NCBI GenBank assembly: GCA_016700315.1
Contig: CP065013.1
Span: 853,298-917,297 of the forward strand
Direction of reading: 5' to 3'
Length of the DNA stretch: 64,000 bases
Source: Candidatus Saccharimonadota bacterium
Lineage (GTDB): Bacteria > Patescibacteriota > Saccharimonadia > Saccharimonadales > SZUA-47
In this document: positions 3,886 through 62,820 of the stretch, piece after piece
Layout of the letters: each line of letters opens with the position of its first letter
How positions within the stretch are numbered: the first letter of the stretch is position 1
Translations under genes and position numbers: made by a program
Notes under the pieces: generated by a model
What the model was told of the DNA's origin: nothing
Seen by the model: only the letters and a program-made list of their open reading frames with translations
Database searches by the model: none

Positions 3886-4116
3886 AGCGTATAAGGGTTA
3901 GGGGGAGTTTATGGTTGATAGTTTATGGTTTATAGAAAATTACTGGCTACTGTTTACTGATGACTGTTTACTGAGAGAAACTCATACTTTATACATGATA
4001 CTTAATACTTGATACTATCATCGTTTAAAGTTTAGGATTTAGAATATCATGCTTGATGCTTACTACTAACTACTTGCTACTAAACCTTAACCACTAAACC
4101 CTGAACCCTTTACGCT
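3886..4116. repeat. Imperfect long inverted repeat inside the radA/tyrS divergent spacer, built from short reiterated words
   Basis: Left arm 3886-3928 (AGCGTATAAGGGTTAGGGGGAGTTTATGGTT...) is about 70-75% identical by eye to the reverse complement of right arm 4077-4116. Local duplicated words TAGTTTATGGTT x2 and CTGTTTACTGA x2. Confidence 0.7.
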
Positions 4117-4165
4117 AATCCCCCAATCCCTTTACCCCAATCGCTTAACGTTGTAAGATGTAAGC

Positions 4166-9184: not shown

Positions 9185-9198
9185 AATTTTGTATTTAG

Positions 9199-9264
9199 TA
9201 TTTTGTATCAGGTATCATGTATAAAAATACCCCATACCTGATTCATGATACTTGATACAAAATA
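9199..9264. repeat. Nested inverted repeat / hairpin between the hypothetical gene and rsmD
   Basis: 21-nt arms at 9199-9219 and 9244-9264 are complementary with 1 mismatch. Inner pair CAGGTAT 9209-9215 / ATACCTG 9234-9240. Confidence 0.8.
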
Positions 9265-9286
9265 CTTGATACATAATACTAATGAC

Positions 9287-15555: not shown

Positions 15556-15633
15556 TCTTAGATATTATAGGCCAGAAGTGGTGAATGAGGAATTGCAGGG
15601 AGCAAGTTGATAGCTTATAGAAGAGCCATGATT

Positions 15634-15832
15634 GGGTTAGAGGTTATAGGTTAGAGTGATTAGGGCTAGGGACTAGTAATTGGTAGTTAGTAAGTATTAC
15701 CCCGTACCTCGTACCCTGTACCGTGTACTGTCTCGGGACTAGGGACTAGGAGCTAAAATCTAGCGGATACTACTGCGTACCGACTAGGGACAAGGGACAA
15801 GGGTCTAGGGACTAGGAATTAGGCTTGCTCCT
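15634..15832. repeat. Modular low-complexity spacer element, copy C (homologous to 17956-18195)
   Basis: TTAGAGTGATTAGGGCTAGGGACTAGTAATTGGTAGTTAGT...AAGTATTACCCCGTACC matches copy D with 2 mismatches and a 14-nt indel. Also shares GTACCGACTAGGGAC..AGGGTCTAGGGACTAGGA and GCGGATACTA. Confidence 0.9.
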
Positions 15833-17376: not shown

Positions 17377-17961
17377 ATGAACAAACATCAATCTGTTTTA
17401 ATCCCAACAGTAATAGAAAAAGAAGGTCAGTATGAGCGGGCTTATGATATTTATAGTAGGCTTTTAAAAGACCGCATAATATTCTTAGGGGATGCGGTTA
17501 GCGAGCACACTGCCAATTTGGTGGTTGCACAGATTCTATTCTTGGAGAATCAAGATCCAGACAAAGACATCATCTTTTATATCAACAGTCCAGGCGGCAG
17601 CGTTTACGACGCTTTAGCAATCTACGACACGATGAATTTTGTTAAATGTGACATCCAGACAGTAGGAATTGGTATGCAGGCCAGTGCAGCCGCATTTCTA
17701 CTCAGTAGTGGCACTAAAGGTAAGCGCATGATCTTACCTAACGCAACTGTTATGATTCACCAGCCAAGTAGCGGCACTCGTGGGAAAGTTACAGACCAAG
17801 AGATTGATCTAAAAGAAAGTCTAAGAGTCAAAAAACTTCTAGAAGAGATAATGGTTAAAAACACCGGACAAAAGCAGTCCAAAATTCATGATGATATGGA
17901 ACGTGATCGCTGGATGACAGCCGACGAAGCCGTGAAATACGGGATAGCCGATAAAGGTTAG
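17377..17961 (+). CDS. clpP: ATP-dependent Clp protease proteolytic subunit
   Basis: [16 protein letters not shown], catalytic Ser context [11 protein letters not shown], His context MIHQP. ATG 17377 is preferred to the TTG at 17368. Confidence 0.95.
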
Positions 17962-18195
17962 AGGTTAGAGTGATTAGGGCTATGGACTAGTAGTTGGTAG
18001 TTAGTAGTTGGTAGTTAGCAAGTATTACCCCGTACCGACTAGGGACCAGGGTCTAGGGACTAGGAGCTAGGTCAGCAAAAGTCCCCTACCGCGGATACTA
18101 CCGTTCAAGACCAAGAGCAAGAGTCAGAGCCAAGGCTAGGTCCAGGACTAGGGCAAGCTACCCCGTACCACGTACCGTCTAGGGACTAAGGACAA
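17956..18195. repeat. Modular low-complexity spacer element, copy D
   Basis: See copy C. It starts inside the last two clpP codons (GGTTAG...) and contains an internal tandem AGTTGGTAGTTAG duplication. Confidence 0.9.
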
Positions 18196-40154: not shown

Positions 40155-40260
40155 GTGGTATGAAGTTTACAATTTTCCGTAGTTTTCAATTTTCAAAAGC
40201 AGTTGCTCGTGTCTCGAGTCTCGTGACTCAGGGCTCTAAAGTGACGAAAGGAGCGATTAT
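40155..40260. repeat. Short-word low-complexity spacer between rpsN and rpsH
   Basis: CAATTTTC x2 and CTCGTGTCTCGAGTCTCGTGACTC. The spacer is unusually long (106 nt) for this junction. Confidence 0.7.
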
Positions 40261-40656: not shown

Positions 40657-40752
40657 TTAAGATTAAGGATTAAAGATAAAAGATTAAAGAATCAATAAAT
40701 TCGTTAATCATCAATCGTAAATCATTAATCATTTAAATCGGAGATTTAAATA
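40657..40752. repeat. Short-word spacer with dyad symmetry between rpsH and rplF
   Basis: The first half reiterates GATTAA/AGATTAAAG. The second half reiterates the complement TTAATC/ATCATTAATC. Confidence 0.75.
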
Positions 40753-48749: not shown

Positions 48750-48944
48750 ATGAGTAACAGGAGCAACCCAAGTTTTGGTGAAATCCTTGACCACTATGTG
48801 TCTCAGGGGGAGACAAGATTAGATTTAATAATATCGTCTGACCCTGAAAAGTACAAAACAAAGGGCTTTGCCCAGAAGGCTTTTTCAAGGGGTAGGAGCG
48901 GGGGGGGGGGGGGGGGGGGGGGGGAGAACCTGGATGAGAGTTAA
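48750..48944 (+). CDS. Hypothetical 64-aa ORF whose 3' part runs through a G25 tract
   Basis: ORF only. The Gly8 run is encoded by the homopolymer, so the C-terminus depends on tract length. Confidence 0.3.
   Translation: MSNRSNPSFGEILDHYVSQGETRLDLIISSDPEKYKTKGFAQKAFSRGRSGGGGGGGGENLDES
48900..48924 (+). repeat. Homopolymeric G25 tract
   Basis: Counted directly: g at 48900 plus 24 g at 48901-48924. Confidence 0.98.
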
Positions 48945-53065: not shown

Positions 53066-53142
53066 GCCACCTTAGCTCAGTTGGTTAGAGCGTCAGTTTT
53101 GTAAACTGAATGTCGTCGGTTCGAATCCGACAGGTGGCTCCA
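53066..53142 (+). tRNA. tRNA-Thr (anticodon UGU), CCA encoded
   Basis: Acceptor GCCACCT/AGGTGGC, D arm GCTCAGTTGGTTAGAGC, anticodon loop TTTGTAA, T arm GTCGGTTCGAATCCGAC. Confidence 0.92.
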
Positions 53143-53625
53143 GACACATGGAGGATGAGAAACGAAGGTTCGATATTCCCCCGTCCGCTGCAAAGCGGAC
53201 AAAACGGGCGGAATATATGCTAAAGTGCACCGCACTGAAGCTATAATCCGACAGGTGGCTCCAGACACATGGAGGATAAGAACCGAAGGTTCGATATTCC
53301 CCCGTCCGCTGCAAAGCGGACAAAACGGGCGGAATATATGCTAAAGTGCACCGCACTGAAGCTATAATCCGACAGGTGGCTCCAGACACATGGAGGATGA
53401 GAACCGAAGGTTCGATATTCCCCCGTCCGCTGCAAAGCGGACAAAACGGGCGGAATATATGCTAAAGTGCACCACACTGAAGCTATAATCCGACAGGTGG
53501 CTCCAGACACATGGCGGATGAGAATTGAAGGTTCGATATTCAGTAGTAATCCCCAGCGTAGCGGGCTGTTCGATTGAATATATGCTGAAGCTAAAAGCGA
53601 AGCAATAATCCGACAGGTGGCTCCA
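53143..53625 (+). repeat. Four tandem units (121, 121, 121, 120 bp), each ending in the 19-nt 3' end of tRNA-Thr(UGU)
   Basis: Units start at 53143, 53264, 53385 and 53506. AATCCGACAGGTGGCTCCA occurs at 53245-63, 53366-84, 53487-505 and 53607-25, plus the original at 53124-42. Units 1-3 are near-identical and unit 4 is diverged internally. Confidence 0.97.
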
Positions 53626-53635
53626 TTATTTTAGT

Positions 53636-53710
<75 letters not shown>

Positions 53711-54173: not shown

Positions 54174-54206
54174 ACTATAAGTTAATAGTTTATGGTTAAT
54201 AGTTGA

Positions 54207-54232
54207 TAGCAGTTAGTAGCTGCTGCTTTTTT
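54207..54232 (+). terminator. Terminator hairpin between convergent rpmG and the GH15 gene
   Basis: (T)AGCAG-TTAGTAG-CTGCT(G) followed by C and TTTTTT, embedded in a short-word spacer (54174-54269). Confidence 0.65.
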
Positions 54233-61192: not shown

Positions 61193-62704
61193 TTACATAT
61201 CCCTCACCTGGCCGAAGGCAATGCGGTCTAGTATCTCGCCGCGCATATCCATCATCGTGGCCGGCGTGACGACGTATTCGCCGTAGCGATTGTTGATAAT
61301 GTCTATCGCATCACTCATTCGCCGCTTGGCGCTCATAGCCCTAAAATCAGACTGCACAATAGCTTGTTTATCGTTTAGCAAAGACTGTTTAGCGTCATTC
61401 TCGGCGTCAAACAGCCCAAGTTGCTCTGGGTCCCAGTCGTGTAGGTCGAAGACTGTAACCGACATTAGTTTGACTTTGTCATAAATCGCAGCCCTCTCTA
61501 GCAAGTAGCAGGCCGCACGGTAAATATCCTCGGTGCTATATAGCCTATGGTCGACTTTCATGCCTTGTTTCCAACTGCGCAACTTATGCATATTCTCAAA
61601 AGATGACGGCAGCTCTCTTGAAAACCTGTCATCTGAAAATTTATTGGAAATTGAAAATTGGAACTTGCTAAATTCCTGGCTTACAAAGCCAAAATACAAA
61701 TGTATGCCCTGCCCATAAAGCCCGCTCTTACGCAGCCTACGGCCGGTTTTCTCGCACAGCTTCAGCAGCAACCTTTTGAGCTCAGTAACGTCTGTCGTTT
61801 TGTGGGGCAGAGCATACTGATGCCCAATGCTCGAACGCTTGCTTTCAGCGCTATCAATTTCGTAGCCACGCAGCCGCAAATACCAGTAGTAGCCAACTAT
61901 GCTTTTAAAAACCTGCTTTTGCAGTAGCCAACGATCGGCCTCCAAAAACTGTAGCGGCGTAGTGACACCACAAGCGAATAACCTTCGTCGAAACCGCGTA
62001 TTGATACCCGGAAGATCAACCAGATCCATTCCTTGGTAGAACTCCAAAAGATTAGTATGGTCAATTAGTGTCATGCCATTTGGTTTATTGAAGCCGGCGG
62101 CGTACTTAGCCAAAAACCTGTTCGGCCCAATGCCGACATTAACTGTTACGGCCTCGCCCAGCCGCTCATAGATCTTTTGCTTTATCTCATAGCCTATTAT
62201 TCGCATGGCCTGGCTATAAAGTCTATGTTCGTCTTTTATCGGTGACATTTTAGACGATATAAGCAAAGAGTAGTCAGTCTGATAATTGGACTTTAAGGAT
62301 TGATTAGAAATTGAAAATTGAGAACTGAAAATTACAGTCCCAATCATAACAATAAGCTTCTTTTTTTTCTTCAGTACCTGGGAACCCTGCAGGTTCAGCA
62401 CGAATTCATCTATCGACTTCGGGTGCACGTCATCGGTGTACTCCAGTAAAAGTTCTTTGAACTTGTTGTGAGCATCGCGGTACTTAGCTGGATCAGGTGT
62501 CATAATCACGATGCCAGGTGCCAGCACTCGAGCTTCAGCCACATTTACGCCTAGTTTCACGCCTTTGGCCTTCGCCGCATAGTTAGCAGCCAAAACAAAA
62601 CCTCTGGGAGTATCATAGGCCGCTACACCGACTGGCCGCCCGCGTAACAGGCGATTGGCCTGCGCCTCAATTGTTGCAAAGCAACTATTGAGATCAATGT
62701 GCAT
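61193..62704 (-). CDS. dinB: Y-family DNA polymerase (DinB/Pol IV-like) carrying two low-complexity in-frame insertions
   Basis: MHIDLNSCFATIEAQ, SIDEF, GIGPNRFLAKYAAGFNKPNG, little-finger C-terminus. ATG 62704 is preferred because the upstream 24 codons of the ORF lie in a short-word spacer. Confidence 0.85.
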   Translation of the reverse strand: MHIDLNSCFATIEAQANRLLRGRPVGVAAYDTPRGFVLAANYAAKAKGVKLGVNVAEARVLAPGIVIMTPDPAKYRDAHNKFKELLLEYTDDVHPKSIDEFVLNLQGSQVLKKKKKLIVMIGTVIFSSQFSISNQSLKSNYQTDYSLLISSKMSPIKDEHRLYSQAMRIIGYEIKQKIYERLGEAVTVNVGIGPNRFLAKYAAGFNKPNGMTLIDHTNLLEFYQGMDLVDLPGINTRFRRRLFACGVTTPLQFLEADRWLLQKQVFKSIVGYYWYLRLRGYEIDSAESKRSSIGHQYALPHKTTDVTELKRLLLKLCEKTGRRLRKSGLYGQGIHLYFGFVSQEFSKFQFSISNKFSDDRFSRELPSSFENMHKLRSWKQGMKVDHRLYSTEDIYRAACYLLERAAIYDKVKLMSVTVFDLHDWDPEQLGLFDAENDAKQSLLNDKQAIVQSDFRAMSAKRRMSDAIDIINNRYGEYVVTPATMMDMRGEILDRIAFGQVRDM

Positions 62705-62820
62705 AATCAAAGGCAAAGCCTTTGATGGTAGATGGTAGGTAGTAAGTGGTAGATGGGGGCTTGACTTTTCTTTCATAATTTGCTAAAATATAGTTTAGAT
62801 AAAATTATTAAGGAGTTACT

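Follow-up and report, generated by a model that had tools for sequence, protein, structure and literature searches.

Two translated segments in a Saccharibacteria Y-family polymerase gene as probable arms of a dispersed heptanucleotide-repeat family of Patescibacteria

Rickettsia palindromic elements (RPEs; Ogata et al. 2000, as summarised in PMC10969869) are dispersed palindromes of ~100–150 bp in the reduced genome of a host-dependent bacterium; the same summary (PMC10969869) places them both in spacers and in frame within unrelated housekeeping genes, where the added peptide is tolerated by the fold. Bacterial MITEs (miniature transposable elements with inverted repeats) that fuse in frame with host open reading frames (ORFs) include ERIC, BOX, Coxiella QMITE1 and Anabaena MITEs (PMC10969869, PMC5896051). 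The short tandemly repeated repetitive sequences (STRRs) of cyanobacteria consist of tandem 7-bp intergenic units that can form hairpins and whose function is unknown (PMC2670836), and repetitive extragenic palindromic (REP) sequences are G+C-rich, extragenic palindromes of 20–40 nt with a GTAG or CGTC head (PMC3733652). Here we analyse a stretch of 64,000 nt from a Saccharibacteria genome (contig CP065013.1, positions 853 298 to 917 297), called the window below, in which a gene for a Y-family DNA polymerase holds two AT-rich segments that a first-pass annotation, made from the letters alone, had likened to RPEs. Each segment probably contains one arm (~58–65 nt) of a dispersed, AT-rich family of 7-nt units in Patescibacteria (the candidate phyla radiation, CPR), gained in this lineage and translated as a disordered loop.

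The two segments share the 14-mer GAAATTGAAAATTG, which occurs exactly twice in the window (61647–61660 and 62307–62320, 660 nt apart). This pair, and its common translation as QFSISN, had been the core of the first-pass annotation and was borne out: on the coding strand the match lengthens to 20 of 22 nt (61639–61660 versus 62299–62320), reading CAATTTTCAATTTC[T/C]AAT[C/A]AAT, and both copies read QFSISN in the polymerase frame. Both segments are AT-rich dips of 26–33% GC in a gene of 46.5% GC, the one at site 1 being the deepest within any ORF of the window, and the element proper covers ~58–65 nt per site in blocks of 32–37% GC. A further AT-rich dip, at 209–328 in a gene resembling those of penicillin-binding proteins (PBPs), proved to be ordinary coding sequence.

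A nucleotide profile of the family (nhmmer) matches the 64-kb window at exactly these two sites, with a core that agrees with the window copies by construction. Outside the probe that seeded the profile, the left flank of copy 1 agrees with the family consensus at 11 of 13 positions, and the right flank of copy 2, TTTCAGATGAC, resembles the family's TTTCAATGAC. The site 1 copy has thus kept the left family flank, and the site 2 copy the right flank together with the common C at the Y position. Tandem Repeats Finder (TRF) reports a period of 7 repeated 3.7 times at 62308–62333, within copy 1. By these matches both window copies are assigned to the dispersed family as single arms; their cores are unpaired in predicted folds, and the site 1 region folds no better than its shuffles (z = –0.46).

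The distribution of the family was obtained with the 22-mer probe CAATTTTCAATTTCYAATMAAT, searched as an exact match in 596 Gb of reference genomes with one genome per species. The 91 matches found compare with ~0.3 expected at even base composition, and with at most ~8 if all DNA were 35% GC. A metagenome collection added at least 120 further matches, while 2.9 million viral contigs gave a single one, which lacks the family flanks, and phage was therefore rejected as a vector. The matches lie overwhelmingly in metagenome-assembled genomes (MAGs) of Patescibacteria (Saccharibacteria, Amesbacteria, Berkelbacteria, Peregrinibacteria, Moranbacteria, Paceibacterota, Uhrbacteria, Levyibacteriota and others). 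Immediately 5′ of the probe, 73 of the 91 fit at least 9 of the 13 positions of AATTTTCAATTTT, against a random expectation of 0.6%; column conservation extends from –13 to about +45 around the probe, and only ~3 matches look chance-like (L012, L039, L050). The family consensus is AATTTTCAATTTT-CAATTTTCAATTTCCAAT[C/A]AAT-TTTCAATGAC.

Some copies with typical flanks stand on MAG contigs labelled Bdellovibrionales, Lysobacteraceae, Gammaproteobacteria or Sulfuricella (L014, L053, L060, L070, L072, L076, L019, L057, L034, L049, L015); these labels reflect either wrongly binned DNA of Patescibacteria or genuine occurrence beyond the radiation. Rfam returned no family for the window or for 15 loci of the family, and the searchable literature gave no paper with the sequence, no account of such a family in Patescibacteria and no relevant link to heptanucleotide repeats or MITEs. 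The family is apparently undescribed.

Many members are palindromic: 32 of 90 fold as long hairpins with z < –3 (down to –9). A full hairpin measures 120–190 nt, with the probe as its 5′ arm, (AAAATTG)n-type sequence as its 3′ arm, and often an inner CAAAC..GTTTG. In spacers the family typically takes the form of a palindrome with forward arm, loop and reverse arm; single arms or whole palindromes are also found within protein-coding genes. Copies at separate loci of the same genome have 71–191 nt in common at 79–94% identity, and their flanks are unrelated. Some loci of 8 kb hold four or five copies, and copy density differs greatly among genomes. In one MAG (L043, 7160–7400, and L048) the CAATTTT palindrome is nested in G+C-richer outer inverted repeats, GTCATTCTGAGGCG.CAGCCGAAGAATCC ... 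GGATCCTTCGC.GTCGCTCAGGATGAC, and this 191-nt composite unit is present at two loci.

A sizeable part of the family lies in genes. Between 24 and 28 of the 91 genome matches, and 30 of the 120 metagenome matches listed, are deep in long open frames. The host proteins that Pfam confirms are Fmt, a MiaB-like radical-SAM enzyme, TsaD, MetRS, UvrC, a Mur ligase, RNase HII, Pth and Tgt; in these genes the block falls inside the Pfam domain envelope, and the protein stretch exceeds the profile length. Five reading frames are used (with the metagenome part counted among the matches listed): forward f0 (..FNFQFSISNQFS.., with QFSISN) in 25 cases, reverse f0 (..IDWKLKIENWK..) in 18, forward f1 in four, forward f2 in five and reverse f2 in two, so conservation is at the level of DNA and not of peptide. 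No frame of the family's forward strand contains a stop codon; a block of frame-preserving length can therefore persist where added residues are tolerated by the protein, and in-gene copies would encode peptides such as SSQFSISNQSLK. The surplus of the polar QFSISN frame suggests filtering by the tolerance of proteins for the peptide. Several host genes hold two or more family copies, so that two in the polymerase are not unusual for the family.

The host gene in the window is a Y-family (Pol IV-like) enzyme gene of a Saccharibacteria genome and looks intact. Its product matches the Pfam families IMS (PF00817, E 3.4e-30) and IMS_C (PF11799, E 1.6e-14) and no other; Dpo4 and DinB are its top PDB matches, and its nearest database proteins are labelled ‘DNA polymerase-4’ and come from Candidatus Saccharibacteria. 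NCBI QQS64853.1 is one of the two members of the 90% cluster that have no differences from the window protein (alignment A3). The catalytic acidic residues, D28 (in HIDLN) and D123 with E124 (in SIDEF), are invariant in 35 aligned orthologs, the query included. Next to the gene lies typA/bipA, in the window as well as in each of the five ortholog loci for which the retrieved DNA extends to the adjacent genes.

Measured against a DinB-type polymerase, the first-pass annotation had noticed one addition of about 50 residues and another of 30–35, and both are real. Query residues 23–130 align to Dpo4 2–112 and residues 180–339 to Dpo4 111–267, which leaves 131–179, ~49 residues, as extra; the little finger has 142 residues where the Pfam profile has 109 positions. 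The repeat makes up less than these additions; part of each is a variable-length loop found throughout the clade, or sequence that is clade-specific and conserved. The length of site 1 varies from 11 to 68 residues in 118 orthologs (median 23; 61 in the query) and that of site 2 from 8 to 67 (median 10; 26 in the query), which marks both sites as indel hot spots. No ortholog of the 118 has even one 4-residue word common to its two sites.

Modelled with AlphaFold from the ortholog alignment (mean predicted local distance difference test score, pLDDT, 68), the inserts come out as loops of low confidence. Residues 151–180 are predicted at pLDDT ~50, with confident helices at 133–151 and from 183 onward; at site 2 the score falls below 50 at residues 373–375 and 380–387. 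Confident secondary structure flanks each site, and the low-scoring residues, with pLDDT ~50 or less, are the portions encoded by the shared sequence.

Two proposed parts of the element did not stand. The HRLYS pentapeptide, read by the first-pass annotation as a common end of both segments and so as half of a two-motif architecture, belongs to the host at each site. At site 2 it lies inside SFENMH..RSW..G.KV.HRLYST, a segment conserved in all 35 aligned orthologs with R411, L412, Y413 and S414 invariant or nearly so; at site 1 the pentapeptide aligns to the beginning of the helix after the loop in Dpo4 and to a clade motif, ERL(I/L)HN.AM, and varies among strains (HRLHS, HKLHS). The terminal inverted repeats of 9–10 nt proposed around copy 1 are imperfect, need a gap, are absent from the family consensus and fold no better than shuffles (the z of –0.46 given above). 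Neither HRLYS nor the inverted repeats belong to the family. A small hairpin (GATGACAGG...CCGTCATC) does lie in the coding sequence at 61595–61640, directly after repeat copy 2, in a 96-nt segment with z = –2.7.

Introns and inteins do not account for the segments. Intron-like GT..AG boundaries can be drawn (GTACTG..TATAG and GTAAGC..TATAG), and they enclose 164 and 149 nt, which are not multiples of 3; removal of the 149-nt span would also take out residues conserved in the clade, and the likeness was rejected as coincidence. No Rfam intron family was found in the window, and IMS and IMS_C are the only Pfam matches of the polymerase.

We examined the gain of the blocks with a neighbour-joining tree of 418 conserved columns of polymerase orthologs. 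The query falls in a clade of 38 members, none of the others having a heptad-type peptide at site 1, where most have 11–19 residues. Twelve orthologs with heptad arrays at site 1 fall outside this clade. Ortholog P0012 shares TTCTCAATT[A/T]TCAA with the query at site 1, where its DNA reads (CAATTATCAAACAT)2, and other Saccharibacteria read QISNIKYQISE there. Distant orthologs have perfect heptad arrays of other units in their site 1 DNA, such as CAGATAT(CAAATAT)3 in P0099 and similar ones in P0021 and P0020. The resemblance to P0012 had suggested an ancestral site 1 block; the tree rejects this, and a repeat of the same class was gained in parallel. Since the clade of the query is otherwise free of blocks, they are gains specific to this lineage, in loops where repeats of this class were gained independently by other lineages. 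Both blocks were gained in the lineage leading to this species, as the 37 nearest orthologs lack them.

A strain-level set of 11 full-length sequences, at least 97% identical and drawn from JGI, NCBI, ENA and Logan assemblies, keeps both blocks at constant length and the frame open in 11 of 11. Variable columns number three of 87 in the loops and four of 416 elsewhere (p = 0.10), which is not significant, and relaxed constraint on the loops at strain level was rejected. A slippage-prone run of eight A on the coding strand (KKKKK, 62361–62368) is likewise constant in length in the 11 sequences. The first 24 codons of the listed ORF (62705–62776) are swapped for unrelated sequence in strains otherwise at least 97% identical; they overlap the GATGGTA array of the leader, which was taken for an N-terminal extension of the polymerase in the ORF list and which is replaced in other strains. 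To judge by these strain differences, translation probably starts at the ATG at 62704–62702 (MHIDLN). The Saccharibacteria orthologs P0028, P0030, P0078 and P0099 have a third, cysteine-rich insertion (C..C......C..C; alignment A2, columns 301–358) before M.LVDLPGIN; it may be a zinc-ribbon-like module, and the window gene is without it.

Table 1. Features of the polymerase locus and of the rpsN-rpsH spacer, in window coordinates
Feature	Position	Strand	Basis or remark
Y-family (DinB/Pol IV-like) DNA polymerase ORF	61193..62776	-	527 codons as listed
Heptanucleotide array GATGGTA x 4.7 (+ strand unit) in polymerase leader	62724..62756	-	TRF, direct repeat D14
Site 1, variable-length loop between catalytic SIDEF strand and next helix, residues 128-188	62213..62395	-	alignment, Dpo4
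Repeat copy 1, single arm, CAATTTT-type heptad family, reads ..VIFSSQFSISNQSLKSNYQ..	62277..62334	-	nhmmer E 3.3e-9
22-nt core of copy 1, CAATTTTCAATTTCTAATCAAT	62299..62320	-	T/C variant, found in 3/91 genome matches
HRLYS codons, site 1: host sequence, start of helix after loop	62213..62227	-	Dpo4 111 onward, ERL(I/L)HN.AM
Site 2, variable-length hairpin loop in little-finger domain, residues 365-390	61607..61684	-	ortholog alignment
Repeat copy 2, single arm, same CAATTTT-type family, reads ..FSKFQFSISNKFSDDRFS..	61609..61673	-	nhmmer E 2.5e-11
22-nt core of copy 2, CAATTTTCAATTTCCAATAAAT	61639..61660	-	C/A variant, found in 31/91 genome matches
HRLYS codons, site 2: conserved host sequence, little-finger strand 2	61535..61549	-	ortholog alignment
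TTTTCAA x 2 in rpsN-rpsH spacer, CAATTTT-type heptamer in other phase, too short for membership	40183..40196	+	no nhmmer match E <10

Compared with the systems described above, the family is, by analogy, closest to RPEs in behaviour and to STRRs in construction, and is a member of neither, since organisms and sequences differ. Like RPEs as summarised in PMC10969869, it is dispersed in reduced genomes of host-dependent bacteria, is found both in spacers and in frame within unrelated housekeeping genes, and there contributes a peptide with which the fold can cope. Against the RPE size given in that summary, full family hairpins measure 120–190 nt, and the window copies are single arms of ~60 nt with no partner and no significant core fold. 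The family differs from RPEs in occurring in other organisms, in its unrelated sequence and in arms built of 7-nt tandem units; near-identical copies span a superphylum where RPEs keep to one genus, and copy density in the window is low. With a Saccharibacteria host, strict RPE membership was not to be expected. The Rickettsia-like reading of the first-pass annotation is therefore partly supported: a small repeat that enters ORFs is upheld by the Patescibacteria-wide family, its spacer hairpins and its in-frame copies in unrelated genes, while the notion that the whole additions of 50 and 30 residues are the element is not.

The likeness to STRRs is that window spacers and family arms have a period of 7 and form hairpins. 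The difference lies in the Saccharibacteria host and in the unit, CAATTTT or CAATTTC, as against a cyanobacterial origin and STRR units such as CCCCAGT, TTGGTCA and CAACAGT. STRRs are not known to occupy housekeeping genes in frame. With MITEs the family shares the features of being non-autonomous, palindromic, multi-copy and sometimes intragenic with in-frame translation; its palindromes have long inverted arms, and neither terminal inverted repeats derived from a known insertion sequence (IS) nor obvious target-site duplications were identified. REP sequences and bacterial interspersed mosaic elements (BIMEs) are likewise small palindromes, often paired in inverted orientation (PMC3733652), whereas the family is AT-rich (blocks of 32–37% GC), longer, without a GTAG or CGTC head, and enters ORFs.

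The explanation that we consider probable, insertion of family arms, would run as follows. Two blocks, taken up in the lineage leading to this species, lie in the pair of polymerase loops whose length differs most from ortholog to ortholog. They would be passively translated, in the QFSISN frame, and form disordered loops on the surface of an enzyme that is otherwise intact. They would have come pre-formed, by transposition-like insertion or by templated copying from another copy, and not by growth in place, because stepwise growth by 7 nt inside an ORF breaks the frame each time. They would be passengers, without a role in the polymerase.

Several points weigh against this explanation. The family profile was seeded with a probe from this gene, so that the flanks alone are independent evidence, and the source genome is not among the 22-mer matches of the one-genome-per-species scan. 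In three pairs of orthologous genes the block has an unchanged position and is ~100% identical over 33–45 nt where the flanking coding DNA is ~70–75% identical, but both members of each pair were found by one exact probe, and the near-identity is partly a selection effect. We identified no target-site duplication or terminal signature; the ends of same-genome copies show no obvious duplication, and being AT-rich and self-complementary they blur the boundaries. No transposase was identified, the neighbouring ORFs having not been screened for transposases. The window copies are single arms without a partner, and two copies only in 64 kb, both in one gene, are odd for random dispersal. Finally, heptad arrays of other units fill the spacers of this genome, and (CAAATAT)n stands at the same loop in distant orthologs, so that local 7-nt slippage exists and could contribute.

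This last point leads to the alternative that survives best, in which a 7-nt unit was amplified in place by slipped-strand mispairing, the likeness between loci stems from a mutational bias common to Patescibacteria, and nothing moved. The window is rich in such repeats. TRF reports 23 rows of period 7 where shuffles give 1.1, and 12 of period 14 where they give 0.1. The units are many (GTTTATG, ATACATG, GACTAGG, GTAGTTG, AAGATTA and others), and most arrays lie in spacers, including 3906–4135, 9186–9280, 15629–15816, 17955–18071, 40659–40733 and 54180–54209. At least one pair of adjacent arrays, 9186–9215 and 9234–9280, has reverse-complementary units. Period 7 also dominates, with many different units, in the other Patescibacteria loci, where outside the seeded sites it accounts for 81 repeats compared with 22, 9, 15, 8 and 1 for periods 4, 5, 6, 8 and 9; the commonest unit there is CAATTTT (18 of 81). 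The distant orthologs with (CAAATAT)3–4 or (CAATTATCAAACAT)2 at the very same loop also fit this alternative. Even so, we regard it as unlikely. Every 7-nt step shifts the frame and is not viable inside an ORF; the shared sequence departs from pure periodicity (..TTTC-CAAT-C/A-AAT-TTTCAATGAC), and its irregularities and flanks recur in dozens of lineages and in unrelated genes; and entire units of 70–190 nt are duplicated across loci within genomes.

Improbable, in our judgement, is a selected nucleic-acid signal, such as a protein-binding site or a processing or termination hairpin, of which the in-gene copies would be functional sites. Nucleotide conservation across very distant lineages, above that of the surrounding coding DNA, and stable hairpins in spacers are what such a signal would produce. 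Spacer copies, however, lie between 41 tandem, nine divergent and two convergent gene pairs, which leaves a terminator-specific role unsupported; in-gene copies are often single arms unable to form the hairpin, both window cores being unpaired; the great variation in copy density between genomes and the lack of an Rfam family also tell against it.

Copying within the gene, by template switching or short-patch gene conversion over 660 nt after a single acquisition from outside, we hold to be quite improbable. It would account for the presence of both window copies in one gene of 1.6 kb, for the 20 of 22 nt in common, with orientation and frame shared, and for a match of at least 14 nt that arises in only 1.5e-4 of shuffles. 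But each copy holds consensus features that are missing in the other, site 1 fitting the consensus to the left and site 2 to the right and at the common C, which argues against simple copying of one from the other; the same frame is expected in any case, QFSISN being by far the commonest in genes, and other Patescibacteria genes hold two or more copies.

Coincidence between two AT-rich, low-complexity loops is effectively refuted: the window does contain ~21 exact direct 14-mer pairs (four of them <700 nt apart), which confirms the earlier caveat that a lone 14-mer is not significant, and a search with up to two mismatches expects ~1.1 chance matches, with two or more in 30 of 100 shuffles, but these two variable loops come to share 14 nt or more in just 1.5e-4 of shuffles by mononucleotide or codon, and both copies fit a family of hundreds of external sequences, flanks beyond the shared core included.

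Other repeats in the window deserve mention. The word usage of the segments had been compared with that of the rpsN-rpsH spacer, which does hold two heptamer units (TTTTCAA x 2) and gives no significant match to the family profile. The spacers at 15638–15823 and 17952–18070, 2.3 kb apart, have several exact segments of 16–21 nt in common, rich in TAGG/GGGAC heptads, e.g. AGGTTAGAGTGATTAGGGCTA. Between tRNA-Thr(tgt) (53066–53142) and tRNA-Thr(ggt) (53636–53710), 53124–53541 consists of 3.5 tandem copies of a unit of 121 nt, at 97% identity. The unit begins inside the 3′ end of tRNA-Thr(tgt), so that every repeat has a tRNA 3′ fragment, and the tandem may have been left behind by integration or duplication; on the minus strand, the listed ORF 53093–53389 is probably spurious. 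An unbroken run of 25 G stands at 48900–48924.

A broader proposal we offer only tentatively. An undescribed palindromic element of ~130 nt, made of CAATTTT heptads and conserved in its nucleotide sequence, may occur across Patescibacteria, spreading as a unit within genomes and between distant lineages and colonising spacers and the loops of essential enzymes, through a mechanism shared with the other 7-nt arrays; the polymerase blocks would be its typical footprint.

For the polymerase gene alone the result is modest, a tolerated insertion, and the blocks are probably passengers in insertion-tolerant loops. Its value is as an entry to an apparently undescribed, superphylum-wide repeat family whose members invade ORFs, and to the surrounding 7-nt repeats; the dominance of these in spacers points to a process that generates or uses repeats. 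There are practical consequences, as the blocks inflate protein lengths and can seed misalignments, and start-codon calls can be misled, as here, where a heptad array was read as an N-terminal extension. Patescibacteria have tiny genomes and are thought to be poor in mobile elements, and Saccharibacteria are now genetically tractable. If the family is mobile or homogenised, it would be a new case of selfish DNA shaping protein loops, far wider taxonomically than that of Rickettsia; it would account for some of the many insertions so far without explanation in Patescibacteria proteins, and it would provide a marker for gene flow between lineages.

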